64,000 nucleotides of DNA from Acidimicrobiia bacterium (GTDB lineage: Bacteria; Actinomycetota; Acidimicrobiia; Spongiisociales; JAENVV01). Position 1 is the stretch's first letter; every line of letters starts with the position of its first letter. The position numbers were made by a program, and so were the translations under genes. The stretch covers positions 22,549 to 86,548 of the forward strand of contig JBFGJH010000004.1 of the NCBI GenBank assembly GCA_041577335.1, read 5' to 3'. The notes below the pieces were generated by a model. That model worked only from the letters and a program-made list of their open reading frames with translations, was not told the DNA's origin and ran no database searches. Shown one piece after another: positions 1 through 51,861 of the stretch.

Positions 1-2
1 TC

Positions 3-191
3 TACACGGTTGAATTCCGCGTCGCGTGGTCTGACCTGGGTATGACTCCCGAACCGGGAATGGTCCTCGGCTTCAGGGTGTCGGCCAACGACAACGACGT
101 CTTCGAGCTGCGGCAGGAAGTGATGTATTCCAACGTCGCCGAAAGCACCTTGCTCGACGTCACGTCGTGGGGCACACTTGAACTGGGCTGA
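3..191 (+). CDS. 3' end of an upstream gene (partial, start lies outside the window); hypothetical protein C-terminus ...EFRVAWSDLGMTPEPGMVLGFRVSANDNDVFELRQEVMYSNVAESTLLDVTSWGTLELG*
   Basis: Frame 3 is open from the window edge to TGA at 189-191. The amino-acid composition looks protein-like. It is convergent with the next gene. No start codon lies inside the window. Confidence 0.3.
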   Translation, partial: YTVEFRVAWSDLGMTPEPGMVLGFRVSANDNDVFELRQEVMYSNVAESTLLDVTSWGTLELG

Positions 192-197
192 CGAGCC

Positions 198-3100
198 TCA
201 GCCTGGCACGATCACCGCGTGTGGGTGGGCGTAGACCGTATAGGCCAGCCAGGTCGCATCCCCGGCGTCGGCCGCGGCCTGGCGCGCTGCGATCACCGCG
301 TCGGTCATGCTCTTGCGTTTCAACAACTCTTCGTACAACGTCTCCGTGAAGGTCCGTGCCGGCCGGTCGCCGACCGACCAGAGCGACGACACGAACGCGC
401 CCGCCCCTCGATTGATGAATGCCGCTGCGAAGCCACCGATACCGGTGAGCTGATAGCCGGCTCTGCCAACCTGGCAAGCGTTCAAGACAACCAGCGGCCG
501 GTTGCCGTCGTCGCCGGTCAAGCTGGCGAACTCCGAAACCGTCGTAGCGTTGAGGTACTCAGGGATATAGCTGCCACTTTCAACCCGCCCCTGCATCATC
601 AAGCGCGCGTTGGTGACGTCCGATTGCTCGGCCGTACCGTGACCGGCAAAGTGCAACAGGTCGAAAGATCCGGGTTGCGAGAGCAGTTTGCGGACCTCGC
701 GAACCGTTGGCTCTACCGCCTGCGCACCGAACTGCTGCTGCATGTACCCGAGTTCGGCCTCGGCCTCGGGTAGCCGGAAGTTCGTGCCCTCCGGGTAGGA
801 CGGCACCACAGCCCGAACATGTTCGGGTCGAACACGTATCGCGTCGGGCGGCCAACTTCCATGAAGCCAGCGCACCAACCCCTTGGCTCCCAAGAAATGC
901 TCTTCGGCCCCGAGTGACCCACCCGGTTCCTTCAGATGAACGATCTCCCATGGGATGAAGGGCTCAGTGGACAGAACCTGAATGGCCTTGATCTGATCTC
1001 GGTGCTCCCACAGAGCAGCCCGGATCTCAGGAGGTACCAGCTCTTCGAACAGGGACGAGCCATACGCTCGGATGTCTTGCCGGAAATTGTCGGCATCTTG
1101 TCCGCTGCCGGTCCAGCGATCTTCGATCTCCTTGAAGAGGCGCTCCACATAGGTTTCCCGATCGACCTTCAGCGGCTGCGAGTCGGCGCGAATCAGGAGG
1201 CCTAGTTCTTCTGACTCGAAGTCGAACTCATAGACGACCTGTCCGTCGCTGTAGCGCTCGTTGATCCGCAGCTGGTGTAGTGGTGTCACAAGCGGCGCCG
1301 CCGGCGTCGCCACGCCCTCGCCTCGGATGGTGCCCGACTCGCTGACGGCCGTCTCCACAACGGTTGGCTCGAGCGCCAGGGTGAGGATCGGCACAACGCC
1401 CTGCCGAACCACAATGTCGACCTGTCCTGGTCCCACATCGGTGGCGCGAACGTCGAAGTAGAACTCCAATGAGCCCTCACCTGGTGGGAGCGTTTCCACC
1501 CGGCTTGGTCCCGCCGACTCGAAACCGCGCCGGCACATGACCTGCAAAACGAGTGGCGCCCCCAGCTCAACCTCGCCACTCCCGGACACGGTGACATCGC
1601 CGGCGATCTGGTCGGTGCCCACCCGCACCTCGATCGAGGTGACCTCGCCGAGAACGACCGAATCGTCCATCCCGGCTGCAAACGCCATCTCGGTGGTTTC
1701 GGCCGGGGCATCGGCCGGCGGTTCCACCACAATGGGAGCCGCTACCGCACCTCCGCCTCGGCGAGGCGAACTCGGGGGTGCGTTGACCGCCGCGGGCGGC
1801 GCGGCCGCCATTTCGGCGAACAATCCCCACCAGCGGCGCAACGCTTCGGCCGTGTTTGCCTGCTGGAAGTAGTTGGTGTGGAAAACCGTGCCGTTCGTAC
1901 CGAACTCGAACCTGTCCTTCAGGTATCCGGCCTCCATGCCGGTCATCGAGGACGTGTTGACCACGAGATCGTTGGACTCCCGCATCAGCCTGTCCATGAG
2001 CCCATCTTTCAATATGAACTTCATGCGCGAGGGCAGGCTGTCAGTTGACTCGTCGGCATCGAAGTTCGACGTGACGGCGAAGTAGTCGATGTCGGTTGGC
2101 AGAGGCTGATCAGGGTTTTCCGCATTGAGGTCGACCACGAAGGGGCCGTCTGGAAGCATCGCCGCCAGCCCAGGGATCGTGTCTTCGTCGATCAGCTCGG
2201 TCGCCAGGGCCTTCACAGCGGCCCCGATCAGCTTCAGGCCGCCGGCAATGAGCGCCGCAGGAGCGGCTGCTCCGGGAATCACGGCCCCCGCGCCGGTCGC
2301 ACCGGCGACGATGAGGTTGGTGTAGAGGTCGACCAGGCGGTGCCAATGCTCAGGGCTGGCGAGGAGGGTGCCTCGGTGCGTGGAACCCACGAACACAGCC
2401 CGCTCGACGGTGGCCGTCCAGCCTGACGTCGGGATGACCTTCTCGATCACGCTGCGCAGAACCAGACCACCCCGGCTATACCCGAGTGCATCGATGGTGA
2501 TGTCTTCGGCGCCGGGAATCGAACGAAGCACCGCCACGATGTCTCTGGCGTTCTCCAGCGGATCGACGCTGAGCGTTCGATGGTCGACACCAATCACCAG
2601 GTCGTAGCGATCATGCGCACCGGCCAAGAGGTCGCGGCCTTCCGGCGTGACCCACAGCGGCCCGAAGCTGTTGGACGTCGACGAGAAGGTGCCGTGCACA
2701 AACAGCAGCATCCTTCCGCCAGGAGGCATTGACAGGTCTCCGGGTTCGGCGTGCCGCCACGCAGACGGCCCGTCGGCCGACATCACGACGATGCCCTCCT
2801 CGACATCCTCGAAGTGATTGATGGCGGCCCGTCCCAATGGCGGAGCCACGTACCGGAGGACAAACGCCGTCGCCTTCGCGTAGATCAGATCGCTCACAAA
2901 CCCGCGGGTCGGGTCGATGTCGGGAGCAACCGGACTCAGTTCTATCGAGAATGTCCGTAGCCCACCCGCCGAACGGGTAGCCGCCGGCGCGGCGGAATCT
3001 TGGGGAAGGACCCATGAGTACACGCCATCCTGCTCGACCAGCACCACTGCGTCCTGTCCGGGAGGTGCTTCCAGGGAGATCTCAACCGGCTGGCTTCCGG

Positions 3101-3353
3101 CGAGTGCCGGGGCACTGCGCCGCCTGACACCAGACGGGGGCGTCTGTTCCACGGTTGGCGTCAGCACAACGCGGTCTACCACTTCGAAGTCTGCTCCTGC
3201 CAGAGCGACGCCGAGATCTGGGGCGCCACCTACATCGATCGGCACGGGGCCTGTGGGCAGGTCCACAGAGCCCCGGTCAGCCTCCTGCGTACTGACGCGT
3301 ACAGTCTCGGGCGCATCGATGTGAACCCCTGATGGCAAATCGGCACTCGCCAT
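198..3353 (-). CDS. Large multidomain protein (~1051 aa): N-terminal region, alpha/beta-hydrolase (lipase/esterase-like, GxSxG = GYSRGG) and C-terminal CHAT (caspase-like) protease domain
   Basis: Uninterrupted ORF 198..3434. The internal ATG at 3351-3353 is preceded by AAGGGGAG; an alternative GTG sits at 3434. Hydrolase motifs: LLFVHGTF, ALGYSRGGLV, NDLVVN, VFHTNYF. CHAT motifs near the C-terminus: LLHFAGHG (His) and VVLNACQVG (Cys), then LWSVGD. Codon usage has high GC3. Confidence 0.75.
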   Translation of the reverse strand: MASADLPSGVHIDAPETVRVSTQEADRGSVDLPTGPVPIDVGGAPDLGVALAGADFEVVDRVVLTPTVEQTPPSGVRRRSAPALAGSQPVEISLEAPPGQDAVVLVEQDGVYSWVLPQDSAAPAATRSAGGLRTFSIELSPVAPDIDPTRGFVSDLIYAKATAFVLRYVAPPLGRAAINHFEDVEEGIVVMSADGPSAWRHAEPGDLSMPPGGRMLLFVHGTFSSTSNSFGPLWVTPEGRDLLAGAHDRYDLVIGVDHRTLSVDPLENARDIVAVLRSIPGAEDITIDALGYSRGGLVLRSVIEKVIPTSGWTATVERAVFVGSTHRGTLLASPEHWHRLVDLYTNLIVAGATGAGAVIPGAAAPAALIAGGLKLIGAAVKALATELIDEDTIPGLAAMLPDGPFVVDLNAENPDQPLPTDIDYFAVTSNFDADESTDSLPSRMKFILKDGLMDRLMRESNDLVVNTSSMTGMEAGYLKDRFEFGTNGTVFHTNYFQQANTAEALRRWWGLFAEMAAAPPAAVNAPPSSPRRGGGAVAAPIVVEPPADAPAETTEMAFAAGMDDSVVLGEVTSIEVRVGTDQIAGDVTVSGSGEVELGAPLVLQVMCRRGFESAGPSRVETLPPGEGSLEFYFDVRATDVGPGQVDIVVRQGVVPILTLALEPTVVETAVSESGTIRGEGVATPAAPLVTPLHQLRINERYSDGQVVYEFDFESEELGLLIRADSQPLKVDRETYVERLFKEIEDRWTGSGQDADNFRQDIRAYGSSLFEELVPPEIRAALWEHRDQIKAIQVLSTEPFIPWEIVHLKEPGGSLGAEEHFLGAKGLVRWLHGSWPPDAIRVRPEHVRAVVPSYPEGTNFRLPEAEAELGYMQQQFGAQAVEPTVREVRKLLSQPGSFDLLHFAGHGTAEQSDVTNARLMMQGRVESGSYIPEYLNATTVSEFASLTGDDGNRPLVVLNACQVGRAGYQLTGIGGFAAAFINRGAGAFVSSLWSVGDRPARTFTETLYEELLKRKSMTDAVIAARQAAADAGDATWLAYTVYAHPHAVIVPG

Positions 3354-3502
3354 ATGCTCCCCTTTTCGAGTGGTCTTGAACCTACATGGCCATCCGCGCC
3401 GGCGGAGGGCATTGACCCGGTCCCAACCGCCCACTCAGCGCTGCAGGGACGGTCTGTTCAGGGCTATCGTTTGGTCAGATAGTCGCTGAGGGGAAGCTCA
3501 CC

Positions 3503-5233
3503 ATGACGACAACCGTAGGCAGCATCATTCATCCCGAGGGCCGGCACGTCATCGAGCCGACTACCCATGAGCAGATCGATGTCGCCATCGCCGCGCTTCA
3601 GGACAACAAGCAGCGTTGGCTGAATCTATCCATCGAGGACCGCATCTTTCACCTCGAGCAAACGATGGCAAACACCTTGGCAGTCTCCGAGCGATGGGTG
3701 GAAGCAGCTTGCGAAGCCAAGGGCATCGATTTCGATGCTGCGGTGGCCGGTGAGGAGTGGTCATCTGGCCCGTATCTCCTCATTCGCAATGCTCGTTTGC
3801 TGCGCGACTCATTGAGAGCGCTCGCAGATGGCCGCAAACCCGAACTGCCGGCGGTTTCGACGCGGCCGGACGGTCAGGTAGTCGCCAAGGTCTTTCCGAC
3901 CGACCTTTATGACCAGGCCGTCTTGAACGGGTTCGTGGGCGAAGTATGGATGCAGCCCGGTGTCACACCCGGCAATCTCGCCAGCACCCAGGCGGTGGCT
4001 TACGACAGCCTGCCTGAGGCCGCCGTCGGGCTGGTGCTCGGTGCCGGCAACATTTCCTCCATCGCGCCAATGGATGCACTCACGATGCTCTTCACCAAGA
4101 AACACGTGGCGCTCCTGAAACTCAACCCTGTCAATGAGTACCTCGGTCCCTTCATTGCTGAGGCCTTGGCTTCGCTCATCGAGGAAGGCTTCGTGCGGAT
4201 CATCTACGGCGGCGTCGAGGCCGGCCACTATGCCTGTGTCCACGATGGGGTAGATACGATTCACGTCACTGGGGCAGACAAGACCTACTACTCGATCCTA
4301 TTCGGCGACGGGGAGGAAGGCGAGGCTCGCCGTATGCGGGACGAGCCGCTCCTCACCAAGCCCGTGTCTGCCGAGTTGGGCAATGTCACTCCGGTGATCG
4401 TGGTGCCAGGTCCGTGGACCACAGCCGACATCGAGTATCAGGCGAAGAACCTCGCCGGGATGCTGACCCACAACGCCGGCTTCAACTGCATTGCGACGCG
4501 GGTGTTGCTCACTCACGGACACTGGAAGCATCGTGAAGCCCTCCTGTCAGCAATCGGGGACACGCTGACTGCAACTCCAACCCGTCCCGCCTACTACCCC
4601 GGAGCCGAAGAACGACTCGCCAGATTCGTCGAGGCGCATCCCGAAGCGCGCCGCTACGGCAACGGAGTCGCAGCCGACTGGACTTTCATCACCGATCTCG
4701 ACGAGAACGAAGAAGACCTGTGCTTTTCCGTAGAGCCCTTCGCAGGGATCTTCGCCGAAGCTCCTTTGGATGCTCCCCGGTCGGTGCCGGAATTCATCGA
4801 GCAGGCCGTCGAGTTCTGCAACAGCAAGCTGTGGGGAACACTGGCCGCCACCTTGATTGTGCACCCCGAATCGCTGAAGGACCCAGCCATCGCCGACGCC
4901 GTCGAAGATGCCATCGCCGGGCTCCGGTATGGAACGGTCACCGTGAATGCCTGGTCCGGCATCGGGTACCTGTTGGTTTCGACCACCTGGGGGGCATACC
5001 CCGGCCACACCCGATCGGAAATCGGCTCCGGCCTCGGCGTTGTGCACAACACCTATCTGTTCGATCAGGCCCAGAAGTCAGTGGTGCGAGCGCCATTCAA
5101 GTCGTACCCCAAACCGTTGTGGTTCGCCGAAAACAAACAAACTCACAATGTGGCCCGATATCTCACCCAGTTCGAAGCGGATCCGCAGCCTTGGAAGCTG
5201 CTTCCTGTGTTCGGGGCTGCCCTCGCTGGATGA
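3503..5233 (+). CDS. Aldehyde dehydrogenase family protein
   Basis: ATG at 3503 is preceded by GAGGGGAAG. ALDH-like motifs: ELGNVTPVIVVPGPW and NAGFNCIATRVLL (catalytic Cys region). 576 aa. Divergent from the CHAT gene. Confidence 0.75.
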   Translation: MTTTVGSIIHPEGRHVIEPTTHEQIDVAIAALQDNKQRWLNLSIEDRIFHLEQTMANTLAVSERWVEAACEAKGIDFDAAVAGEEWSSGPYLLIRNARLLRDSLRALADGRKPELPAVSTRPDGQVVAKVFPTDLYDQAVLNGFVGEVWMQPGVTPGNLASTQAVAYDSLPEAAVGLVLGAGNISSIAPMDALTMLFTKKHVALLKLNPVNEYLGPFIAEALASLIEEGFVRIIYGGVEAGHYACVHDGVDTIHVTGADKTYYSILFGDGEEGEARRMRDEPLLTKPVSAELGNVTPVIVVPGPWTTADIEYQAKNLAGMLTHNAGFNCIATRVLLTHGHWKHREALLSAIGDTLTATPTRPAYYPGAEERLARFVEAHPEARRYGNGVAADWTFITDLDENEEDLCFSVEPFAGIFAEAPLDAPRSVPEFIEQAVEFCNSKLWGTLAATLIVHPESLKDPAIADAVEDAIAGLRYGTVTVNAWSGIGYLLVSTTWGAYPGHTRSEIGSGLGVVHNTYLFDQAQKSVVRAPFKSYPKPLWFAENKQTHNVARYLTQFEADPQPWKLLPVFGAALAG

Positions 5234-5270: not shown

Positions 5271-6119
5271 ATGACGATGAAACACGGTGTGGTGATCTTC
5301 CCAACCGATAAGGCCATCCAGCCCGTCGAGCTGGCACAGGCCGCCGAGGACCGGGGCTTTGAGTCACTCTGGTTCCCGGAGCACTCGCACATTCCTGCGT
5401 CGCGTCGAACGCCATGGGGTGGCCGTAAGGACGCAGACGACCTGCCAGAAGAGTATTGGCGCTTGCACGACCAGTTCGTCGCCTTGTCTGCGGCCGCTGC
5501 GGTCACGTCCACGATCCGGCTCGGAACTGGCATCACGCTGGTGGTGCAGCGCGACCCATTCTGGTTGGCCAAGCAGGTGGCGTCGTTGGATGTCATCTCC
5601 AACGGCCGGTTCATCTTCGGTGTGGGTTTTGGGTGGAATGTCGAGGAAGCCGAAGACCATGGGATCAACTTCAAGAAACGCCATCGGATCGTTGACGAGA
5701 TGTTGAGCGCCATGAAGCTGATCTGGACAGAGGACGAGCCTGAGTTCCACGGCGAATTCGTGGACTTCGACCGTCTGTGGGCCTGGCCCAAGCCGGTCCA
5801 GCAGCCGCACCCCCCGATCGTGTTTGGGACCGGTACCGGTCCCTTGGGGACCAAAGCGGTGATTGCTCATGCCGATGGCTGGATGCCCCTGCGGTTGTCC
5901 CGCAGCTACGAAGAGGAGATCGCCGCCATGCGCAAGGCATTGGCGGCGGCGGGCCGCGACCCAGAAGAGCTCGAGATCACGATCTTCTACGCCAAGCCTG
6001 ACGAGGATCTGCTCTCCGAATTCCGCAAGCTCGGCGTCGCCAGAGTCATCTTCTCGCTCCCGCCGGCCGGTCGTGAGGTTGTGATCCCCAAGCTCGACGA
6101 GTTGGCCCGGCTCAGCTGA
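5271..6119 (+). CDS. LLM class (luciferase-like) F420-dependent oxidoreductase
   Basis: MKHGVVIFPTDKAIQPVELAQAAEDRGFESLWFPEHSHIP is a typical TIM-barrel LLM N-terminus. 282 aa. RBS TAGGGGATGA before the ATG. Confidence 0.85.
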   Translation: MTMKHGVVIFPTDKAIQPVELAQAAEDRGFESLWFPEHSHIPASRRTPWGGRKDADDLPEEYWRLHDQFVALSAAAAVTSTIRLGTGITLVVQRDPFWLAKQVASLDVISNGRFIFGVGFGWNVEEAEDHGINFKKRHRIVDEMLSAMKLIWTEDEPEFHGEFVDFDRLWAWPKPVQQPHPPIVFGTGTGPLGTKAVIAHADGWMPLRLSRSYEEEIAAMRKALAAAGRDPEELEITIFYAKPDEDLLSEFRKLGVARVIFSLPPAGREVVIPKLDELARLS

Positions 6120-7605
6120 CCGATTCGGTCGCGAATCGAGTAATCAGAGGCGCGAACCGGTCGACGATCGCCGGGCTGAGGGCGGGCGGGGAGATCATCG
6201 CCTCGCTGACGCCCACCTCCACATATCGGCGAAAGTGACCGACCAGATCGTCGACGGTGCCGCCATTGACCTCTTGGGCGAACTCCTCGGCGGTCGTGTT
6301 GGGGGGGCGCAGCTCTTCGAGGAGGGCGCCCAGGTCGTCGCGGTCAGCAGCCGCCAGGGCGGAGCCGAGGTGGGTAAGGGCGATCTCGCCCGGATCCCTC
6401 CCAACTGCTGCACAGTGATTCTCCAATACCTTTCGTTTGGCACTGACTCGGTCGGGGTCCCCCATGAAGTTGGCGGCATCGGCGTGGCGGGCGACCAGGA
6501 GGAGGGTGCGCTGCTCACCGGACCCGCCCACGAGGAGCGGGATCTTCTCTTGGAGCGGGCGCGGATAGTTCATTGCCTCGAGCATCGAGATCGTGGCACC
6601 GTCAAAGGGCTTGCCGCCGGGACCCCACACCAGCGGTAGCGCCTGGAGCGCATCCTCGAGCCCGTCGAGGCGGACCTTGGCTGGGGGGAACTCGTAGCCG
6701 AACGCCTTGGCCTCCTGCTCGAACCATCCGGCCCCGAGCCCGCACCGGGCCCGGCCCCCTGACAGCACGTCGAGGGTGGCGATGATCTTGCCGAGGTAGC
6801 CGATATTGCGAAACCCGACGTTGGTCACCAGCACGCCCAGCTTGATCGTCGTCGTGATCCCGGCCAAGTACGCCAGCGTTGTGTAGCTCTCCAGCAGCGG
6901 GTCCCACGCCCGACCGACCTGGGGGATCTGGCGCAGGTGGTCCATCACCCACAGCGTTGTGAAACCAGCTTGTTCTGCGGCACCCGCAACCTCACCGAGG
7001 CGTACTGCGATCTCCTCGTCGGGCCAGTCGAACCGCGCCACGACGAGACCGAATTCCAACTGGGCGGGGGTGGATGTCTGGCGCTCCGCCGCTTCGGCCG
7101 CAGCCGCCGAGGCGGCCGGGCCACGGGCGACCTCGGAGGGCGCCGTTGCGATTCGATCGAATCCGTCGTCGGGAAGTTCGCCAACCACCTCGCGGTGCCG
7201 TCGGAGCTGCGCATCGAGCACCCGGACGGGTACCGGATCGCGGCGGCGCCGGTTGCGCTCTCGAGACACTTCAGCGGGTGCGTCCAGCACCACGGCCACG
7301 GCCTCCAAACCGGCTTCTTTGGCCAGTTGTGCCCATCGGCGACGGGCACCCCGGTCGAATCCGGTCGTGTCGACGACGGTGGTCAATCCCCGTCCGAGCC
7401 GAAGTACGACAATCCGCTCCAGCAGTTCGAACGCATCCACCGAAGCCTCTTGGTCCCAGTCGCCTCGGCCCACCATGCCGCGCAGAGCGTCGGAGGAGAC
7501 CACCGCCCCGGGGAAATGCGAGTGGGCCCAGGTGGACTTGCCCGACCCGGCCGGGCCCACGAGCACCACCAGCGCCGGGCGTTCGAATCGGAGCGGCTCG
7601 CTCAC
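6112..7605 (-). CDS. Fusion protein: N-terminal AAA_33-type P-loop kinase/ATPase domain plus C-terminal LLM class F420-dependent oxidoreductase domain
   Basis: P-loop LVVLVGPAGSGKST followed by VVSSDALRG (AAA_33-like). C-terminal LLM motifs: TLWVMDHL, DVLSGGRARCGLGAGW. The likely start is GTG at 7605..7603, forming a GTGA overlap with the stop of the upstream SDR gene. A TTG at 7617 is the alternative. Confidence 0.75.
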   Translation of the reverse strand: MSEPLRFERPALVVLVGPAGSGKSTWAHSHFPGAVVSSDALRGMVGRGDWDQEASVDAFELLERIVVLRLGRGLTTVVDTTGFDRGARRRWAQLAKEAGLEAVAVVLDAPAEVSRERNRRRRDPVPVRVLDAQLRRHREVVGELPDDGFDRIATAPSEVARGPAASAAAAEAAERQTSTPAQLEFGLVVARFDWPDEEIAVRLGEVAGAAEQAGFTTLWVMDHLRQIPQVGRAWDPLLESYTTLAYLAGITTTIKLGVLVTNVGFRNIGYLGKIIATLDVLSGGRARCGLGAGWFEQEAKAFGYEFPPAKVRLDGLEDALQALPLVWGPGGKPFDGATISMLEAMNYPRPLQEKIPLLVGGSGEQRTLLLVARHADAANFMGDPDRVSAKRKVLENHCAAVGRDPGEIALTHLGSALAAADRDDLGALLEELRPPNTTAEEFAQEVNGGTVDDLVGHFRRYVEVGVSEAMISPPALSPAIVDRFAPLITRFATESVS

Positions 7606-8366
7606 TGCGCCGTCCAACCCCCGTCCACCGGGAGCACGGTGCCGTTGACCATGCCCGAGCCGGGTGAGGCGAGGTAGACGACGGCGGACGCAACATCGTC
7701 GATGGTGGCCACCCGCCCTGCAGGAATCCGTTCGACCACCGCCTTCAGATAGTCCGGGTCGTCGAGGCGTTCAGCCGTTCCCGGGGTGTAGACAAACGTC
7801 GGGGCGACTGCATTGACCGTGACGCCGTGTGGAGCCCACTCCAGCGCCAGAACCTTGATCATCGCGTTGATGCCCCCCTTCGACGTCGTATAGACAGCGT
7901 GGTCACGGATCCCTACGATGCCGGCCTGGGAGCTCATGACCACGATCCGTCCATATCCGTTGGGCACCATATGGCGGCCGGCCGCCTGACAAGTGAAGAA
8001 GGCGCCTTTGAGATTCACGGCCATCATCCGGTCCCAATCGTCCTCGGTGACCTCCAACGCCGGCTGATTGTCGCCGAGACCGGCGTTGACCACGCAGATA
8101 TCGAGGCCGCCGAGTGAAGCGACGGCCCGGTCGATCGCCCCACCGGTGGCGTCCACGTTGGTCACATCGAAAACCACAGCCACAACCTCGTGTCCGTTCG
8201 CGGCGAGCTCCGCTTCCAGCGATCGAAGGAGGCCCTCGTCGCGCCCGCAGACCGCTACTGAGGCGCCTGCCTCGGCCAGAGCCAGGGCCAGGCCGCGACC
8301 GATACCGCGAGTTGCGCCGGTGACGAGGGCTCGCGAACCCTCTAGCAGTTGAGCAGTTGCCATCAT
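7602..8366 (-). CDS. SDR family NAD(P)-dependent oxidoreductase (short-chain dehydrogenase)
   Basis: TGATRGIGRGLALALAEAGASV (TGxxxGxG) and YTTSKGGINAMIK (YxxxK). 254 aa. Start MM at 8366. Confidence 0.9.
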   Translation of the reverse strand: MMATAQLLEGSRALVTGATRGIGRGLALALAEAGASVAVCGRDEGLLRSLEAELAANGHEVVAVVFDVTNVDATGGAIDRAVASLGGLDICVVNAGLGDNQPALEVTEDDWDRMMAVNLKGAFFTCQAAGRHMVPNGYGRIVVMSSQAGIVGIRDHAVYTTSKGGINAMIKVLALEWAPHGVTVNAVAPTFVYTPGTAERLDDPDYLKAVVERIPAGRVATIDDVASAVVYLASPGSGMVNGTVLPVDGGWTAQ

Positions 8367-11576: not shown

Positions 11577-13337
11577 CTAGTAGGTGACGCTCGCCTCGTT
11601 CGAGCAAACCGTGGTGCCTTCTTCACAGATCTGATACACGTACGTCCCCGAGGGTGGTGTCCGGAATCGATCCAGATACGAGCCATCATTGGACGTCCGT
11701 CGCAACACGACGCCGTCTCGGACCACGTCCACGGCGCGTCCTTCGGCTCCTGACCAGGTCAGGTCGGTAGCGCTGCGGCCACGATCCTCGGTGGCGACCG
11801 CCGTCAGGGTGATGTCACCACCACCGACGACCTCCAGCGTCACCGACACCGTGTCCGATGCCGAATTGCCTGACGAGTCCGTGACTGACGCGGTCACCAC
11901 GTGAGTGCCGTCGGTCAACGCGGCCGTCACCGACCCACCGGTGCCGAGGTCGCCGTCGAGGTCCGAGGACCACGATATGTCGGCCGTGAGATCGCCGTCT
12001 TCGTCATCGTCGGCTGTAGCCACGAACGGCACCGAGTCGCCAGATGTGAAGGTCGAGCCGTTGGCCGGCGACGAGATCGACACGCTGGGGTCGCCGTCGC
12101 CACCGCCGCCAGTTGCTGCGAGCACCGGAACAATCCCGGTCACATCGAGCAGCGGCTCGAGGATTCCGTCGCCCGAGTCGTCGACCCAGTTGAAGTTGCC
12201 GTTGCCGGTGATCTGGCCGTAGAGCGACGCAACGTCGCCGGCATTGTTGGGTTTGTCTGCGCTGGCCAGGAGAGCCAATGCGCCTGCGACGTGAGGGCTC
12301 GCCATCGACGTTCCGCTGATGGTCCCGTACGAGCCCCGCTCGATGGGAAATGTGGACAGAATGCACGACCCGGGGCCGGCGATGTCGACGGCCGAGCCGA
12401 AGTTGGAGTACCACGCGAGCGTGTCGTCTTGATCGACATCGCAGAACGGGCCACCGCCTGCACCGGGAGCGCCGTCGAAGTCGGCAATGGCGCTGACGGT
12501 GAGGACATTGTCGAATGCAGCCGGGCTGTAGTTGGAGGCGTTCTGAGAGTCGTTGCCGGCCGCGACGGCAAAGGCCACGCCTGCGTCGACGGCCCCTTGG
12601 ATGGCGTCGTACTCGGCTTGGTTGAACCCAAAGCCGCTCAGGCTCATGTTGGCAACCTCGATCGTGCCGGCGTTGGCGGCTACCCAGTCAATGCCCGCAA
12701 TGATCCACGAACTGGACCCGGAGCCGCGCCGGTTGAGAACTTTCACCGACCAGATGCGGGCGCCGGGGGCGACCCCGACGACCCCGTCTCCGTTGTCGAT
12801 GGCGCCGATCGTGCCGGCGACATGGGTGCCGTGATAGTGGTCATCGTCGCCGCCGGTCACGCATGAGCCCGACGTGCAGGTGACGCCGCCAACCGCGTTG
12901 AGGTCGGGATGCTCGAGATCGACACCGGTATCGAGGACCGCCACATCGACGTCGACGCGGAAGTCATCAGAACCGTCGATGTCGATGGAGGTGTTGGCAT
13001 CAGCGAACACCCGCTGGATTCCGGTCGGGATGTCCTGGGCGGCGATCGACCGCACCTGGTCGGGAACGACGTACTTGACCCGGGGATTGCGTGCCAGATT
13101 GTCGGCAGCCTGGGCAGTCATGGAGGCAGAGAAGCCCCGGATGGCGTGGCGGTAGACCTGGTCCAGCTCACCTTCATGCGCCCTGGTCAGCTCTTCGGCA
13201 GCGTCGCCGACATCGGTTGCCTCTTCGTTGAGGACAACGATGTAGCCCTGCTGGCTGGTCGGAGCAGCCGCAGTGGCGCCGGCCAAAACACCCAACACCA
13301 TGGCAACGGCGAGCAAGGCCTTCAATGAACGATTCAC
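11577..13337 (-). CDS. Secreted S8 family serine peptidase (subtilisin-like) with C-terminal Ig-like/beta-sandwich extension
   Basis: Catalytic triad motifs AVLDTGVDLEHPDL, HGTHVAGTIGA, GTSMASPHVAGALALL. The preferred start is GTG at 13337, with GGAGGGAAG nine nt upstream and signal peptide VNRSLKALLAVAMVLGVLAGATAAAP. The ORF extends to a TTG at 13400. Confidence 0.9.
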   Translation of the reverse strand: MNRSLKALLAVAMVLGVLAGATAAAPTSQQGYIVVLNEEATDVGDAAEELTRAHEGELDQVYRHAIRGFSASMTAQAADNLARNPRVKYVVPDQVRSIAAQDIPTGIQRVFADANTSIDIDGSDDFRVDVDVAVLDTGVDLEHPDLNAVGGVTCTSGSCVTGGDDDHYHGTHVAGTIGAIDNGDGVVGVAPGARIWSVKVLNRRGSGSSSWIIAGIDWVAANAGTIEVANMSLSGFGFNQAEYDAIQGAVDAGVAFAVAAGNDSQNASNYSPAAFDNVLTVSAIADFDGAPGAGGGPFCDVDQDDTLAWYSNFGSAVDIAGPGSCILSTFPIERGSYGTISGTSMASPHVAGALALLASADKPNNAGDVASLYGQITGNGNFNWVDDSGDGILEPLLDVTGIVPVLAATGGGGDGDPSVSISSPANGSTFTSGDSVPFVATADDDEDGDLTADISWSSDLDGDLGTGGSVTAALTDGTHVVTASVTDSSGNSASDTVSVTLEVVGGGDITLTAVATEDRGRSATDLTWSGAEGRAVDVVRDGVVLRRTSNDGSYLDRFRTPPSGTYVYQICEEGTTVCSNEASVTY

Positions 13338-13449
13338 CGGATTCTTCCCTCCACAAACCACAAAAAGTGAAGCAGTCTGCTCTCTTCGTGATGTTGACAA
13401 CGCCGAACAGTAACGGACACGGCGGCTGCTGGAAAGGGGCGCCGTCGAT

Positions 13450-33767: not shown

Positions 33768-34292
33768 GTGACCCTGAAGGCCGGCTACGACGTCACCGAG
33801 GACGACATCCGGGGGTGGATCCGATTCGCTTTGGCTCAACGGGGTGAGGTGCAACGGTCTGTGCGGATGGCCATGGTCCTACTCCCCATCATCGCGACAC
33901 TGCTCGGATGGCTCATCGAGGGCGCGCTCGGTGCCGCGGTGGGCCTGGCTCTCGGTCTCATCGTTGGACTGCTCGTCTTTCCGCAACTGATGAAGCGCAC
34001 GATCGACGGACGAATCGAAACGGCGATCGAGCAATTGCCCGATGGCATCGTGGGCCCGCACTCGTTGGAGGTGCTGGACGATCGGATCGTGTGGACGACG
34101 ACGGCAGTGCACAGCACATGGAAGAGGTCGGCGATCAGGCGCGTCGCCAAGACCGCCGACCACGCGTTCGTGATGCTGGGAGCAGAGAACGCCATCGTCG
34201 TGCCGCTCCGCAACGATGCGGCCGGTCAAGTCAGCGCCGTCGTGGGCGCCATCGAAGGGGCCCCACCACCGATTCTGCCGCGGCCCGGCTAG
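33768..34292 (+). CDS. Hypothetical membrane protein (YcxB-like)
   Basis: GTG at 33768. Two central TM helices: MAMVLLPIIATLLGWLIEGALGAAVGLALGLIVGLLVF. Confidence 0.45.
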   Translation: MTLKAGYDVTEDDIRGWIRFALAQRGEVQRSVRMAMVLLPIIATLLGWLIEGALGAAVGLALGLIVGLLVFPQLMKRTIDGRIETAIEQLPDGIVGPHSLEVLDDRIVWTTTAVHSTWKRSAIRRVAKTADHAFVMLGAENAIVVPLRNDAAGQVSAVVGAIEGAPPPILPRPG

Positions 34293-34681
34293 CGCCGGCG
34301 CCCTGGGCCTTCAGGTCGGCTTGCCCTCGCCACCTCCAATCGAAGCAGCCGCGCCGCGAGGTATCGCTGAGTGCCCCAAAAGGCGAATACGCCGACTGCG
34401 GCGATCCAAACGAAGCTGGGCAGCAGCCCCAACGTCACGAGCGCAACATTGAGCCCGATCGAGCCTGCAACACCCAGCATCAGGCGAGCTGTGAACGCCT
34501 TCGGCTGTTCGAGGTCGAGGATCACAAAGCCGGGCACCGTCAATACGAAGACGATCGAGAGAGACGGCTGGAGTGGCGGGCCGGCATCCGCCCACACACT
34601 GGCTGTTTGTCCGATGGCGACGATGACCACCCACATCTGACCGGCTCCCGGTCTCCATCCTCGGCCGATGAACTTCCTCAT
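34289..34681 (-). CDS. Small integral membrane protein (3-4 TM), translationally coupled to the upstream large membrane protein
   Basis: ATG 34681..34679 overlaps the TGA of the upstream gene (ATGA). Hydrophobic throughout. Confidence 0.5.
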   Translation of the reverse strand: MRKFIGRGWRPGAGQMWVVIVAIGQTASVWADAGPPLQPSLSIVFVLTVPGFVILDLEQPKAFTARLMLGVAGSIGLNVALVTLGLLPSFVWIAAVGVFAFWGTQRYLAARLLRLEVARASRPEGPGRRR

Positions 34682-36609
34682 TGCTGACCTGCCGGCGCAA
34701 AGACTCGGGCGTCACGGTCCTCAAACACGAGTTCGAACTCGTCCGATTCGAGCAACGACTGCTCGACGCGGTCCAAAGTCGGAGACAGCAGCGTCCCCAG
34801 GGCAGTGACCGATTCGCGCTGCGATCGAGTGATGATCACAAAACCACCGCTGTACCGTTCGGTATCGCTCATCCAACCGGCGATCCGAGTGGCAGGATCT
34901 TGGAGTAGGCCCTCGAGCGTCTCCGGCGTCGACCGGTCAAGCGGCAGATATTGGAAGAGCTCGTAGTTGCGGTGCTGGCGCGGGTAGTCGCGGCTGCCCT
35001 CGACGATGAGCGCTCCCGCCCGAGCGTTCTCGAAAAGGAACTCGGCCGCGGCCACCTCGGCGTCACTGAACACCTGCCGATTGTCGGCTCCAAAGCCGGC
35101 GATGAGCAGGGTCGCGGTCAAACCTACGAGCACAACGCCCATGGCGACGATGCCGAGGCGGGTTGACACGGTCTGGCTGCGCGGAAACCACAGCGACGCG
35201 GCGAGGAATGCTGCGAACGGCAGGGCAAACAAATAGGCGCGAAACAGAACCTCGCCGCCGTACGAGCTGAGTAGGACGAGTAGGACAGGAGCACCGGCCG
35301 CAACGACAACCCATTTGGTGGGAAGTCGATGGCGCCTTCGCCGCCACAACCCAAGGCCGGCGAAGGCCGCGATCAACGCGCTGAGCAGGCGGGACATCTG
35401 AGAGATTCGGAGCTGAGTCTCGTTGAAGAATTCGGCGGCGACGAGGTTGTTCTCCAGATTCGATTCGACGCCGCCTATCTCAGTGACCACGCCTCGGATA
35501 TTGTCGACCACAAAATCCCTGGCCGGCCCAAACATCCAAGCGAGGGAAAACACCACGATCGCCACGACCGGCCATGTCACTTTCATGACCCGGGCCAGTC
35601 GCAGCGCGGCAAGAACAACGATCGTGGCGATGGGCGTGATCTGATGAGTGCTTGCGATGGTCATCAGTGCAAGTGTCAGTACGACGCCAACGGCCAAGGA
35701 GGGCAGGGTTCCTGGCTCGATTGCATCGTCCAGGGGGTCACTCGATCCATGAATCCCGCTCGCGTCGGTGGCGTACCAGCGCAACACGATGGCGAGGACC
35801 ATGAGATACATGAAATAGGCAAGCGCCTGAGGTGCGAAATAGTCTTGACCCACCCAGTTGCCGAGCGTGAAGAAGAGAATGCCGGTCCACAGAAGCCTGG
35901 GGTCCGAGGTCACGCCGCGGAACAACACAAACAGCGCACCAACGAAGAGCAGCTCGAATAGCACCGGCGCCCACGAGGCATAGGAAAGCGCCGAGTCGAG
36001 ATTGCTTGCTTCGGTGATCCATGCGTTGATGCCAAAGAACCCCGGCCAGCTCTGATACACCGGATGAACCGGCACCGAAGGGTCGACACCACCCGTTCGC
36101 TGGATGAACTCCACAACTCCAACGTGCTTCCACGCCCACGAGAATCGCAGATGGTCGTAGACGAACGCCGGGACGCCGTGCACCATCACCGTGATCACAG
36201 TGACATAGGTGCCCAGAACGGGACCTCGTTCGGCTCGTCCCGCCGCGACGGCGTATCCAACCAACGCGCCCATCAGAGCTACGAACGCCGTGATGGGCAG
36301 GATGGTCACCAGCCCGTAACCTCCCATCGCGGACTCGTCGGTTTGCGCCAGAGACCATGCCCAGAGGAGGACCATGGCAGCGACGAACATGAAGTGACGG
36401 CGTGCCGAGGGTCCGCGAGAAGGATGGAGAAGAGCCTGGCGCAAGTCTTCGGGAGACTCTCCCTGAGTCGTTGGCTCGGCTTTCGTTACGCGATCGATGG
36501 CCACGGAGGCTTTCCGCGACAACTGGCGTACCGAACTCAGCGGTGCGACGGCCGTCGCTTGCTTGTTGCTATCGGATGAAAGGCGCGCCTGGCACGCAGA
36601 ACCCCCCAA
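34678..36609 (-). CDS. Large polytopic membrane protein, putative GT-C-fold glycosyltransferase / polysaccharide polymerase-like (start uncertain: TTG 36609 or ATG 36390)
   Basis: More than ten predicted TM helices. A large loop HVGVVEFIQRTGGVDPSVPVHPVYQSWPGFFGINAWITEASN is typical of lipid-linked-sugar GT-C enzymes. Last gene but one of the envelope operon. Confidence 0.55.
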   Translation of the reverse strand: MGGSACQARLSSDSNKQATAVAPLSSVRQLSRKASVAIDRVTKAEPTTQGESPEDLRQALLHPSRGPSARRHFMFVAAMVLLWAWSLAQTDESAMGGYGLVTILPITAFVALMGALVGYAVAAGRAERGPVLGTYVTVITVMVHGVPAFVYDHLRFSWAWKHVGVVEFIQRTGGVDPSVPVHPVYQSWPGFFGINAWITEASNLDSALSYASWAPVLFELLFVGALFVLFRGVTSDPRLLWTGILFFTLGNWVGQDYFAPQALAYFMYLMVLAIVLRWYATDASGIHGSSDPLDDAIEPGTLPSLAVGVVLTLALMTIASTHQITPIATIVVLAALRLARVMKVTWPVVAIVVFSLAWMFGPARDFVVDNIRGVVTEIGGVESNLENNLVAAEFFNETQLRISQMSRLLSALIAAFAGLGLWRRRRHRLPTKWVVVAAGAPVLLVLLSSYGGEVLFRAYLFALPFAAFLAASLWFPRSQTVSTRLGIVAMGVVLVGLTATLLIAGFGADNRQVFSDAEVAAAEFLFENARAGALIVEGSRDYPRQHRNYELFQYLPLDRSTPETLEGLLQDPATRIAGWMSDTERYSGGFVIITRSQRESVTALGTLLSPTLDRVEQSLLESDEFELVFEDRDARVFAPAGQQ

Positions 36610-36735
36610 TACTGATGTCTCTGACCGCGTATGCCGGCCAGAATGTCGTCAATGTAAACAGGCGCTGCCCCTGCGGACAACTGATCGGTCACCTCCGACG
36701 TTCGCCCCTCGACCGCTGGGATGCGAGCCGGGCCT

Positions 36736-39042
36736 TCACAGCCGGTGCAGCACCGCCTCGAAGTTACGAACGTACCAGGGCGAGCCCGGCCGATAGCGCT
36801 CAGAAACCTCGAGGTTCAAGGCAGCACTATGCCACCACAACGCGATGATGGCGGTGACACCAGCCGCCCATTGCAGGTCGTGGGCAGCTTCAAGCAGCTG
36901 CCGTTCCCGCTCGTCCCATCGCTCGTCGGCTTCGATGAGCTCGAGCACGACCTGCCCCGTTTCGCGACCTTCTAATGCCACCCTTGTCGTCACGAGAAGA
37001 GATACGAGGTCGAAGTCCACGGGTCCGGCGACGTCGGATGCATCCCAGTCGATGACACCGACCAAATGGCCGTCAGCTTCGTCGACGAGGAGATTTCCGA
37101 GCCAGAAGTCGCCGTGGATCATGGCGCTCGGAACGGGTGTCAGTTGCTGTCCGAGCCGGTCAGCCATCGCTCGAGCAGCGTCGATCGTGGCATCGGCTGC
37201 TCCTCCGGCTCGCAGCTGATCGAGGATGATGGCGGTCCTCCGATTCAGCCAATCGACTGGGCTGACGCCTGGATCGACGGTGCGACGGGTCAGCGTCGCC
37301 GCCCAGTCCGCTGCTTCGCCAATCGTGGTTTCGAGAACCCCGGGCTTGGCGAGGAGCCGGGTCGCCGGAAGCCCACCGAGATGGCGTTCCATCACGAAGA
37401 CTCGACCGTCCAGGTATCCATGTCCGAGTACGGGCGGGATCGTTGATCGAAGGGGGTCCAGCCGGCCATTCTCGCTCGCCCGTTCCAGAGCGGTCGTCGA
37501 ACGCTGGATAGACGTTTCTCCTTTGCCAGAGCGCCCCGTCTTGATGATCGCGCCGGGCCGACCGCCAGGATCACCCACGGTCACTGCCCGCACATCCGTG
37601 AGGCTCGACAGGCTCCGCAGCGGAACCCAGGAAGGGTGGCCAAGTGTGTCGGCGAGGCTGTCGAGCACGGCTCGCGCGTAGGCGCGATCCGATCGGTGGC
37701 CACGCAGCTGCATGGCTCGATCGCGCAGTGCACCGAGCGACTCGATGAAGCGAGGACTCAGGTTGGCCAGCAGCAGCGACCGCAAGCCCGTAACGAGAAG
37801 TACTGCCGCCACCACCGACTGGCCGACGAGCCAGGCAACACCAACGCCGGTGATCCCCATCGTGCCGAGGAGGAACCACGACAGGCCGAGCACTACCACC
37901 GCCAGGACCGACATGAGCACCACGAGCCGCTTCATGCGACGTTCGGCGCGGAGCAACGCCGTGTAGATGGTTGTCACCACCGTCGGAAGCGACGCAATGG
38001 CGAGTAGTCGAAGGAGTGACGCGCCCTCAGTCGAGTACTCCTGCCCGAACAGGCGCAAGACCAACGGCGCGGCGATCACCAACACGGCGACCGCCGGGAT
38101 CATGAGGAGCGTTGTCTGGCGCAGCGTCCGGTACGTGAGAACGGCGGCGGCGCTGGGATCGGCAGTCGTTTCGGTGAGCATTGACATACCGAAGTTGCGC
38201 CCTATGAGGTACAGGACGTACGCAACGCTCCACGCCAGGTAGAAATAGGCCGTCTCCGCCGCACTCGTTCGTTCCAGCACGATTACCGGAAGCAGGCTGA
38301 CAGTGCCAGTCCATACCAGGGAAGCTGCATAGTCACCGGCCACGAAGGCCCGCAGGATGCGGCCGGTCACATGCTCAGGATCGTCGCGCGTGGCACGTAC
38401 GTGTTTGGGAACGAGCCGTAGAAACATCAGCGCATTCACCACGACCACGACCGGCACCACCGGGACCGTCCACGCCACGAAGACACCCGAATCTGTCAGG
38501 GCATCAGCGACGAAAATCAGCACAGCTATCTTGGCGATCGCGAAGATGAGGTTCTCCACAGTTACCCAGTGAGCAGCCCGCAGGCCGGTGAGGGCGCCAT
38601 CCTGCAGCACGAAGATTGTCCAGGCCCCTACCGCAACCGGGAACCAGACGATCATCCCGGCGGACTCGCGTACGAAGCCAAGGGTTGGCGCCCAGATATC
38701 CACGCCGGCGACAAACAGTGCGCCCGCTGCCAAACCCGCTGATCCGGCAACCAGGTACGACCCAACGATGATCCGCGGCGTGGCATGACCGCCGCGCGGC
38801 ACGAAACGGTTCAGACCATTGAAGAGATTGAACGACGACAGATTGGCAAGGAACACCATCGTCGCGATCGCCGCGGATCCGACACCGATTTCGGCAGGCT
38901 CGAATAGCGCAGTCGCCAGAGTCCAAAATGCGAGGCCGAGCACCGACGACAGAACAGAGCTGGCTGCCAGAAAGTACCCGTTGCGATAGAGCGGATCGGA
39001 CCAGTGCCCCGCCAGCTTGGTCCGCCAGGTCACGCCGGCCAT
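36736..39042 (-). CDS. Fusion: MOP-superfamily polysaccharide flippase/exporter (Wzx-like, ~12-14 TM) plus C-terminal aminoglycoside-phosphotransferase-like (APH/ChoK) kinase domain
   Basis: The N-terminal ~430 aa are hydrophobic with Wzx-like topology. C-terminal MIHGDFWLGNLLVDEADGHLVGVIDWDASDVAGPVDFDL matches Brenner's motif HGDxxxxN plus the DWD activation loop. ATG at 39042 avoids overlap with the GH16 gene; the ORF extends to 39153. Confidence 0.75.
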   Translation of the reverse strand: MAGVTWRTKLAGHWSDPLYRNGYFLAASSVLSSVLGLAFWTLATALFEPAEIGVGSAAIATMVFLANLSSFNLFNGLNRFVPRGGHATPRIIVGSYLVAGSAGLAAGALFVAGVDIWAPTLGFVRESAGMIVWFPVAVGAWTIFVLQDGALTGLRAAHWVTVENLIFAIAKIAVLIFVADALTDSGVFVAWTVPVVPVVVVVNALMFLRLVPKHVRATRDDPEHVTGRILRAFVAGDYAASLVWTGTVSLLPVIVLERTSAAETAYFYLAWSVAYVLYLIGRNFGMSMLTETTADPSAAAVLTYRTLRQTTLLMIPAVAVLVIAAPLVLRLFGQEYSTEGASLLRLLAIASLPTVVTTIYTALLRAERRMKRLVVLMSVLAVVVLGLSWFLLGTMGITGVGVAWLVGQSVVAAVLLVTGLRSLLLANLSPRFIESLGALRDRAMQLRGHRSDRAYARAVLDSLADTLGHPSWVPLRSLSSLTDVRAVTVGDPGGRPGAIIKTGRSGKGETSIQRSTTALERASENGRLDPLRSTIPPVLGHGYLDGRVFVMERHLGGLPATRLLAKPGVLETTIGEAADWAATLTRRTVDPGVSPVDWLNRRTAIILDQLRAGGAADATIDAARAMADRLGQQLTPVPSAMIHGDFWLGNLLVDEADGHLVGVIDWDASDVAGPVDFDLVSLLVTTRVALEGRETGQVVLELIEADERWDERERQLLEAAHDLQWAAGVTAIIALWWHSAALNLEVSERYRPGSPWYVRNFEAVLHRL

Positions 39043-39058
39043 GGGTGGGGTCGGGCGG

Positions 39059-47017: not shown

Positions 47018-47140
47018 ATGCACAAGATTCGGAGACACTCCCTCGGAAATCAAGTTCAACGCAAGGAGTTTCGGAACTGTTCATGTATCTGGAACGCGTT
47101 CCGCAGGGGCTTGTGAGGGTCTCGAATTGGGTTACACGGT

Positions 47141-48427: not shown

Positions 48428-48598
48428 TCGAAGGACAGCTCCCCTGCGGGTTCGGTTCTCTGAACAATTGGGTCTCGGTTCGTATGCGCCGATCTTCAAG
48501 ATAGGCGCGCCGATACCACGGTCCATGGACCGCTGACCTCTTGCGGAAGGACCGGCGCTGAGGCACCCACGGCTTGGCTACGCCGATAGGCTTCGGGC

Positions 48599-51352: not shown

Positions 51353-51409
51353 ATCAGACCCAACCGATCATCTCGATGTTCGTTGCCCACAATGTCAGGT
51401 CGCCGACGT

Positions 51410-51793: not shown

Positions 51794-51861
51794 AGCATCG
51801 ACAACGTGCGGGGCATGCGTTTCGGCCGTCGAGTGTCGCTCGTCGGACACTGTTCGCTCGC

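Follow-up and report, generated by a model that had tools for sequence, protein, structure and literature searches.

A lipase-like hydrolase fused to a CHAT protease in an uncharacterised bacterial family: a candidate module of a caspase-type proteolytic relay

The left edge of a 64,000-nucleotide stretch of an Acidimicrobiia genome (contig JBFGJH010000004.1 of assembly GCA_041577335.1; the whole stretch is called the window) carries a minus-strand gene whose product joins a lipase-like alpha/beta-hydrolase to a C-terminal CHAT protease. This hydrolase-CHAT protein is a member of the DUF7362-DUF7379-DUF7363-CHAT family, which has been catalogued but is uncharacterised. Both of its catalytic centres are conserved, and the genes of its relatives often adjoin that of a second caspase-fold protease. 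We tentatively read the protein as a dual-enzyme module of a caspase-type proteolytic relay that may serve in conflict or cell death, a reading to which we give somewhat less than an even chance.

Read from its first GTG, the minus-strand open reading frame (ORF) spans 198..3434; read from the ATG at 3351-3353, it runs to the stop codon at 198-200 and encodes 1051 amino acids (aa). The span 198..3353 is taken as the gene because a Shine-Dalgarno-like AAGGGGAG lies about 5 nt 5' of this ATG and because the closest homologue among the matches listed, at 86% identity, is likewise 1051 aa long. Four Pfam models match the protein in order, all above their gathering scores (coordinates within the gene are on the minus strand throughout). 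DUF7362 (PF24062; 2850..3218, aa 46-168; E=1.5e-13, 51.7 bits vs 27.6) covers an N-terminal all-beta domain whose strands are also present in the structural model. DUF7379 (PF24096; 2124-2708, aa 216-410; E=1.3e-59, 201.9 bits vs 33) matches over its full profile length and forms the core of the hydrolase, and DUF7363 (PF24063; 1371..1676, aa 560-661; E=5e-16, 59.7 bits vs 28.3) corresponds to a beta-sandwich with model strands at aa 553-666. The CHAT model itself (PF12770; 267-809, aa 849-1029; E=1.8e-22, 80.6 bits vs 24) falls within the C-terminal region. The fusion of about 1050 aa that had been proposed in an earlier, sequence-only reading of this DNA is thus confirmed by the ORF, by the Pfam domains and by the predicted folds. 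The Pfam search that it suggested recovered CHAT above threshold, whereas no curated lipase family (Lipase_2, PGAP1, DUF676, LCAT, Palm_thioest) exceeded its cutoff; Palm_thioest matched the nucleophile elbow below threshold (19.4 bits vs 26.8). A Pfam match to Peptidase_C25 was weak, no TPR or SAVED domain was found by Pfam, and an NCBIfam scan gave no meaningful match. In PADLOC, the protein matched BovA (E=1.1e-6) and SAVED_CHAT (E=1.7e-6).

A full-length AlphaFold2 model, built from 58 homologues with a mean predicted local distance difference test score (pLDDT) of 83.4, shows how these parts are arranged. A lipase-like alpha/beta-hydrolase fold occupies aa ~185-510 (1824..2801) and carries a helical insertion at aa 334-410 (2124..2354) that may act as a lid. 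The two long helices of this putative lid (334-358 and 363-384) are Ala/Gly-rich and amphipathic, and their hydropathy is the highest in the protein, yet below the threshold for a transmembrane (TM) segment. A disordered, Pro/Ala-rich linker with pLDDT <50 follows (1710..1814, aa 514-548), then the beta-sandwich, further strands and a helical segment at 732-783. The CHAT region, a clan CD caspase fold identified by Pfam, Foldseek and a PDB profile match, spans aa ~730-1051 (201..1166); its alpha/beta fold covers aa 791-1050, and the loop at 962-971, just after Cys960, is of low confidence. When the C-terminal ~400-500 residues were compared with the PDB by Foldseek, matches were obtained to the TPR-CHAT protein Csx29 (7zoq_A, E=7.7e-9) and to separase (5fby_A, 1.1e-7), with further matches to DdvA (8rw5/8rot) and SAVED-CHAT (8tl0); DdvA was also the profile match of the CHAT region in the PDB (8rot, E=2e-7). 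For the hydrolase, Foldseek returned a Pelosinus lipase, thioesterase domains of polyketide synthases and non-ribosomal peptide synthetases, and the phospholipase PlaB. Model and fold searches together support both the lipase-like hydrolase and the CHAT fold that had been predicted.

The structural neighbours of the hydrolase also include the type VI secretion phospholipase Tle4 and, beside PlaB, a second Legionella effector, RavL, which would suit a lipase-protease toxin secreted or injected against competitors or hosts. Neither a signal peptide nor a TM segment was found in the hydrolase-CHAT protein, which is predicted to be cytoplasmic, and no secretion-system, Rhs/PAAR or immunity genes recur among the neighbours of the family. 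We regard a toxin of this type as highly improbable.

The two catalytic centres were followed through an alignment of 121 sequences at 39-93% identity. In the hydrolase, the predicted nucleophile Ser293 (GYSRGG; 2475..2477) sits at an elbow between a strand (286-292) and a helix (295-310) of the model; the Ser is present in 120 of the 121 sequences and the R-G after it is invariant. The first Gly of the GxSxG motif varies across the DUF7379 family (G/S/A/T/C). The oxyanion-hole motif H220-G-T-F-S224 (2682..2696) has invariant G, T, F and S, with His in 120/121. The predicted triad is completed by Asp462 (1968..1970), which lies in an N461-D462-L-V stretch kept in 121/121, and by His492 (1878..1880), kept equally strictly. 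The fold is that of an alpha/beta-hydrolase, as are the strand-turn-helix elbow that bears the nucleophile and the canonical order in which acid and His follow. In the CHAT domain, the predicted catalytic His905 (H-F-A-G-H-G; 639..641) and Cys960 (L-N-A-C-Q; 474..476) are both found in 121/121 and belong to an invariant set that comprises D898, H901, H905, N958-A-C960 and a P801-W-E motif. The profile match, the caspase-hemoglobinase fold and the His-Gly...Cys dyad place this domain in clan CD. All motifs cited in the sequence-only reading are present, namely ALGYSRGGLV (Ser293), LLHFAGHG (His901/His905) and VVLNACQVG (Cys960), and conservation among the homologues upholds both of the catalytic centres it proposed. 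Judged from the alignment, both active sites are clearly under purifying selection, which argues that both enzymes are probably functional.

The family is widespread. The sequence-only reading had taken the architecture as not described, an overstatement given that three Pfam DUF models are built on it, that its members have names in the databases ('CHAT domain-containing protein' or, as used by NCBI, 'DUF7379 domain-containing protein') and that at least 571 species genomes contain it. JGI annotates one homologue as a lipase of the EstA type. At least 604 matches were obtained at E<=1e-5, and essentially all of the best 120 have the same Pfam set. Among 185,579 GTDB species-representative genomes, at least 571 loci were counted (about 0.3%). 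Members are found in Acidimicrobiia and Intrasporangiaceae, in Bradyrhizobium, Nitrospira, Planctomycetota, Acidobacteriota and Verrucomicrobiota, and also in Chloroflexota, Myxococcota, Cyanobacteria, Bacteroidota, Pseudomonas and Halomonas, so that the phyletic distribution is wide yet very patchy. When the hydrolase domain alone was searched against 1.84 billion representatives, 425 clusters (50% identity) were recovered at E<=1e-30; many matches of 500-700 aa stop just past the hydrolase and are either genuine short forms or truncated metagenomic ORFs.

Most relatives differ from the window protein in one respect. About 86% of the listed homologues have an additional domain, PF19973 or 'Ternary complex associated domain 7' (TCAD7), between the hydrolase and DUF7363. 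The window protein gave no Pfam match to TCAD7 at E<=1, and the domain is likewise missing from 17 of 120 listed homologues; the protein thus belongs to a TCAD7-less subclade. In the alignment, a gap of ~200 aa falls after aa 539 and 552 and is filled in 113-115 of the 121 homologues, and the disordered linker at aa 514-548 occupies the site of the ~150-200-aa TCAD7 of most relatives. Two short matches that looked like stand-alone TCAD7 proteins were rejected, as they are fragments of a frameshifted family gene (L095, 8973..14603). The gene is broken into five ORFs or more (two DUF7379 fragments, TCAD7, DUF7363 and CHAT), which accounts for the database entries that looked like TCAD7 alone; either it is a pseudogene, or the assembly of long metagenomic reads has introduced the frameshifts by error.

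At this locus the second caspase-fold protease is encoded by the gene that converges on the hydrolase-CHAT gene. Only its 3' end lies in the window, where the plus-strand segment 3..191 holds the last 62 codons and the stop. The product of this segment is identical to the C-terminus of a protein (P0254) on contig L090 (GCA_041564755.1), which is 99.98% identical to window 1-6191 and effectively represents the same genome; its identity to the C-terminus of the corresponding partner in the relative L001 is 67%. P0254 has 767 aa and consists of an N-terminal CHAT domain with an intact dyad (HYIGHGG / LNSCEG), a Pro/Thr/Ala-rich linker, one TM helix and a C-terminal CBM9_1-like domain that is predicted to be extracytoplasmic. 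This membrane CHAT partner of the hydrolase-CHAT protein was previously unremarked. The stops of the two genes lie 6 bp apart, tail-to-tail, and their transcripts may overlap, since no terminator-like structure was found. The tail-to-tail pair is kept in L001 (86%), L002 (69%) and L010 (67%).

This view past the window edge bears on a further explanation put forward in the sequence-only reading, in which the protein serves as effector for a system of the STAND/NLR-like, gasdermin or CRISPR-linked kind, with the sensor and immunity genes a little past the window edge. Such systems do employ CHAT proteases, and the fold matches to Csx29 and SAVED-CHAT, together with the weak PADLOC matches, recall this. 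However, what lies past the window start, in the near-identical contig and in the syntenic relatives, is the CHAT-TM-CBM9 gene and then the housekeeping gene YchF, with no STAND, TPR, NACHT, gasdermin, cas or immunity genes. Neither a gasdermin nor a STAND NTPase gene is adjacent in the window or in the syntenic and other loci examined, and no such family recurs in the 86 loci described below. The genomic context largely refutes the proposal, and we consider it very unlikely.

To describe the wider context, flanking ORFs were clustered from 86 loci of the family. Only two neighbour families recur across lineages, a Peptidase_C14 caspase and a family here called CHAT-X, which includes P0254. 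The C14 caspase, of ~280 aa, occurs in 23 loci with its His and Cys intact in every one; it lies directly downstream and co-directional in an Intrasporangiaceae-type clade, upstream and co-directional in L003 and L011, and divergent in Nitrospira (L004), and is also found in a Chlorobi locus. CHAT-X occurs in 11 loci, convergent in Acidimicrobiia and a Verrucomicrobium, and upstream and co-directional in Bradyrhizobium, L076 and L086. Partners within 6 kb were counted in the 65 loci for which 3 kb or more is available on either side of the gene. In 29 of these 65, a further protease of caspase fold, either CHAT or Peptidase_C14, was present with an intact dyad, mostly at no more than 100 bp, and the adjacency takes at least four different gene orders in several phyla. 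A separate scan of the two nearest genes per side in 45 diverse loci (135 proteins, searched in bulk with Pfam and PADLOC) found heterogeneous, mostly metabolic or housekeeping proteins with isolated PADLOC matches only. MoxR, vWA and STAND were not recurrent among these neighbours, for which gene calls were coarse, or in the 86-locus clustering. The genes that flank the hydrolase-CHAT gene differ between lineages.

Several loci have features of their own. In Bradyrhizobium (L069, 7084..13357; also L053, L061 and L068), genes for a soluble 410-aa CHAT protein, a 532-aa protein with ~8 TM segments and no Pfam match, and the hydrolase-CHAT protein are co-directional, with a two-component system downstream. 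In a Vicinamibacterales genome (L067, 6101..11349), a CHAT-SIR2_2 fusion of the CHAT-X family is encoded 22 bp downstream of the hydrolase-CHAT gene and is followed by a 1080-aa ORF. The Nitrospira locus (L004, 1..9604; CP092079.1) has an insertion sequence element (HTH_Tnp_1, rve) and a Tc-toxin-like gene (SpvB/TcdB/RHS) beside the pair, and short contigs related to it (L005) carry integrase genes; it is a mobile or variable region, unlike the context in the window.

The family of the membrane partner is very large (more than 2,668 matches). Its N-terminal CHAT module is 55-60% identical between members, while the C-termini are hypervariable and include CBM9, FGE-sulfatase, TPR, WD40, PEGA, SH3, PD40 and TIR+FHA, as well as a CHAT-SIR2_2 fusion. 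A constant CHAT module joined to hypervariable C-termini (SIR2, TIR+FHA, FGE-sulfatase) would, by analogy, resemble components of conflict systems. Five CHAT-CBM9 homologues were sampled for hydrolase neighbours, one of them (L090) from the same genome as the window. In another acidimicrobial locus (L091, 4926..9814), genes for an extracytoplasmic function (ECF) sigma factor (Sigma70_r2), a 149-aa protein and a CHAT-CBM9 protein are co-directional. Convergent with the last is a gene for a stand-alone 455-aa LCAT/PGAP1-like alpha/beta-hydrolase, distantly related to DUF7379. This arrangement is an unfused version of the hydrolase and CHAT pair and is possibly linked to sigma-factor signalling. 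In L094 (8434..13256), the CHAT-CBM9 gene is convergent with an operon for a metallo-beta-lactamase-fold protein, a 902-aa protein without Pfam match and a Patatin-like phospholipase, the last lying three genes from CHAT-CBM9. No comparable hydrolase was found beside the homologues in L092 and L093. These neighbours are suggestive, in a sample of five that is too small to carry more, and seen from the CHAT-CBM9 side, adjacency to a hydrolase-CHAT gene is not universal.

The same contexts can be read in physiological terms. The protein might deacylate and cleave envelope-associated or acylated proteins, acting as a thioesterase of the palmitoyl-protein thioesterase (PPT) type combined with a protease, and might take part with the membrane CHAT protein in envelope signalling such as ECF-sigma control. 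The CHAT-CBM9 homologue of L091 follows an ECF sigma-factor gene, and DdvA, a CHAT-containing anti-sigma factor, offers a parallel (PMC11506125); the partner family, however, also bears effector-like variable domains (SIR2, TIR). Synteny of the pair is kept in a metabolic neighbourhood at 67-86% protein identity, and the neighbours show no defence enrichment, but flanking genes vary between lineages and the Nitrospira gene stands beside transposases, an integrase and a Tc-toxin gene. Nor is the very patchy distribution (at least 571 loci, about 0.3% of ~186,000 species genomes) what would be expected of a housekeeping protein. The syntenic core-genome setting that the sequence-only reading would have taken as evidence against its proposal was thus found in part: synteny is kept among close relatives, but across phyla the family occurs patchily and often has another caspase-fold protease beside it. 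A physiological, non-immune role is kept in play because there is no defence-island context and because synteny is stable, although we judge the housekeeping explanation doubtful.

Under the relay reading, the hydrolase-CHAT protein would work together with a second caspase-fold protease. A lid-bearing hydrolase with the triad Ser293-Asp462-His492 would be tethered, by the flexible linker and the beta-sandwich domains, to a CHAT protease with the dyad His905-Cys960. At this locus the second protease would be the convergent CHAT-TM-CBM9 protein, whose extracytoplasmic CBM9-like domain may sense an envelope or glycan signal and thereby drive proximity-induced or proteolytic activation of the relay. 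Once active, the CHAT domains would set the lipase-like domain free or move it to a lipid or acyl substrate, perhaps by a cut in the exposed linker (aa 514-548), with damage to the membrane, death of the cell or a stress response as the outcome. The protein may also be the protease-gated or autoprocessed lipolytic effector that the sequence-only reading suggested. The lipase-like domain would be either the output, acting on membrane lipids or acylated substrates, or the input, as a ligand-hydrolysing sensor.

A stronger form of this reading holds that the hydrolase-CHAT protein and its convergent partner constitute an undescribed, NTPase-free transmembrane relay of initiator and executioner caspases that senses attack on the envelope and releases a lipase. 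The glycan-binding ectodomain of the partner would sense phage, an epibiont or wall damage, and the partner's cytoplasmic CHAT domain would switch on the hydrolase-CHAT protein; by cleaving its targets or itself, the latter would free a lipase that kills or remodels the cell. Elsewhere, a C14 caspase, CHAT-SIR2 or other CHAT-X fusions might plug into the same hub. We offer this more specific scheme as a speculative and rather unlikely one.

The position of the hydrolase also suits the opposite flow of information, in which it is a ligand sensor that turns over a small ester or lipid signal and thereby switches on CHAT as the real output. There is precedent for such roles: the D14/KAI2 receptors bind and turn over their ligand, and the lipase-like EDS1 family acts in plant immunity. 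Where CHAT systems have been characterised, sensing falls to the domain other than CHAT (TPR in Csx29, SAVED in SAVED-CHAT), and the hydrolase is N-terminal, in the sensor position, with a large helical lid that covers its site in the model. The partner caspase-fold proteases could then be downstream substrates, as PCaspase is of SAVED-CHAT. The strict invariance of triad and oxyanion hole nevertheless argues for real turnover, which fits hydrolytic receptors but fits an effector enzyme equally, and no signal-generating enzyme (cyclase, TIR, CD-NTase) recurs nearby. We think it improbable, on balance, that the hydrolase serves as such a sensor.

A number of observations weigh against the relay reading as a whole. 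In about half of the loci, no caspase-fold gene adjoins. The convergent orientation of the pair at this locus gives no operon evidence, and the pair lies in conserved synteny between YchF and the genes for aldehyde dehydrogenase and luciferase-like monooxygenase (LLM). A recent common origin of the two CHAT domains by gene duplication was considered and ruled out; they are not recent paralogues, since they are only 22% identical over 127 aa. The 135 neighbour proteins showed no defence enrichment in what was a coarse scan, because the gene caller, based on G+C at third codon positions (GC3), missed some genes. The PADLOC matches of the protein are weak and confined to the catalytic core, viral contigs in IMG/VR hold no relatives of the family, and plasmids gave one distant CHAT match only. 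A literature search found no paper that names DUF7379, DUF7363, DUF7362 or TCAD7. The link to conflict systems drawn in the sequence-only reading therefore stands in part: it is favoured by the presence of TCAD7 in the majority of homologues, by the pairing of hydrolase and caspase in Kaur et al. (2020) and by the weak BovA and SAVED_CHAT matches, but not by the lack of defence enrichment.

Other features of the window can be stated briefly. The hydrolase-CHAT gene shares a divergent intergenic region (3354..3502) with an aldehyde dehydrogenase gene on the plus strand (3503..5233). A simple promoter scan found no sigma-70 consensus in this region, and a simple promoter and terminator scan of window 1..3600 gave no match. 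Further on, a minus-strand gene (6112..7617) encodes a 501-aa fusion of an AAA_33-type kinase/P-loop domain and a luciferase-like monooxygenase, as annotated from L001 and L002; it is adjoined by a second LLM gene (5271..6119) and a short-chain dehydrogenase/reductase gene (7602..8366). A minus-strand gene at 11577..13400 encodes a putative secreted, subtilisin-like protease of 607 aa, read from its translation (S8-type motifs), with repeated Asp/Gly/Ser/Thr-rich beta-type modules in its C-terminal region. AT skew is 0.13-0.21 in 34001..40000 and 46001..52000, as against roughly -0.11 to +0.09 elsewhere, and these stretches coincide with long minus-strand ORFs (34678..36609, 36736..39153, 45458..47059 and 47141..48526).

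In bacterial immunity and regulated cell death, proteases with a caspase fold are coming to be seen as central switches, as in Craspase, the cascade from SAVED-CHAT to PCaspase, gasdermin proteases, type IV Thoeris and Borvo. The present family is widespread and has two conserved catalytic centres, often beside another protease of caspase fold, yet NTPase, cyclase and CRISPR inputs are all missing. Its characterisation could explain by what means a caspase-type protease is coupled to a lipid or acyl hydrolase, would test the hydrolase-caspase prediction made in 2020, and could tell whether CHAT proteins that are anchored in the membrane and bear extracellular binding domains are receptors. If the housekeeping explanation is true, the family would instead caution against taking every CHAT protein for a defence gene.

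Among known systems, Csx29 TPR-CHAT of Craspase and separase are the best structural matches and have the same His/Cys dyad, but identity is 10-14% and the hydrolase-CHAT protein has no TPR or helical regulatory domain, no gRAMP and no securin-type partner. SAVED-CHAT cleaves and activates the C14 protease PCaspase in type III-B CRISPR (Steens et al., bioRxiv 10.1101/2023.06.23.546230; PDB 8TL0). The CHAT domain of the window protein matches this structure in fold and in sequence, the gene of a CHAT protease adjoins that of a second caspase-fold protease in both cases, and the CHAT-plus-C14 adjacency in the family parallels SAVED-CHAT with PCaspase. In contrast, the hydrolase-CHAT protein has no SAVED domain, CRISPR-Cas genes or source of cyclic oligoadenylate (no cas genes were found in the window or the syntenic loci), its N-terminal module is a hydrolase, and its partner in this genome is no C14 caspase but a CHAT protein of the membrane. 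Borvo (BovA), in which a single gene for a CHAT protease acts against phage, is likewise a stand-alone CHAT protein without an NTPase, although the match covers only profile positions 546-667 of 711 and Borvo has no hydrolase domain. DdvA, a transmembrane anti-sigma factor with a CHAT domain (PDB 8ROT/8RW5; PMC11506125), is the best PDB sequence match (18-19% identity) and a precedent for CHAT in transmembrane signalling of the kind proposed for the CHAT-TM-CBM9 partner. Unlike the hydrolase-CHAT protein, DdvA is itself a membrane protein and has no hydrolase, and no sigma or anti-sigma genes adjoin the window gene. On the hydrolase side, BlEst2 (6WPX), a Streptomyces lipase (5H6G), PPT1/2 and PlaB (6ZTH) are alike in fold, elbow, Ser-Asp-His order, HG-type oxyanion hole and lid, whereas identity to lipase, PPT and PGAP1/LCAT-type hydrolases is 14-22% and no Pfam lipase family reaches threshold.

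The closest parallels are found in the computational survey of Kaur et al. (Kaur, Burroughs, Iyer and Aravind, 2020, eLife e52696, PMC7159879), a supplementary file of which does not mention TCAD or CHAT. The EACC1-caspase systems described there combine a constant N-terminal caspase-fold module with hypervariable C-terminal domains and frequent TM helices, and have a single-TM EACC1 gene upstream. The partner family may recall this layout, as it shows a constant CHAT module, C-termini that vary and a TM helix; in L001, L002 and L090, however, the annotation has no small TM gene upstream of the partner. In the MoxR-vWA conflict systems of the same survey, a caspase peptidase was observed to be obligatorily paired with an alpha/beta-hydrolase. 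The pairing of a caspase-superfamily peptidase with an alpha/beta-hydrolase is common to the MoxR-vWA-VMAP ternary systems and to the hydrolase-CHAT family, most members of which have PF19973. In the family, however, both enzymes are fused in one polypeptide, the window protein is without TCAD7, and no MoxR, vWA or VMAP genes stand beside the gene in the window, in syntenic loci or in the other loci examined. As a fused form of the pair without the MoxR-vWA-VMAP core, the protein therefore resembles the pairing and is not a member of a ternary system; by analogy, it can be viewed as a fused, NTPase-independent counterpart of the MoxR-vWA hydrolase-caspase pairing. It is no wholly new kind of system, but a fused, NTPase-free and, in this genome, TCAD7-less form of a known hydrolase-caspase theme.

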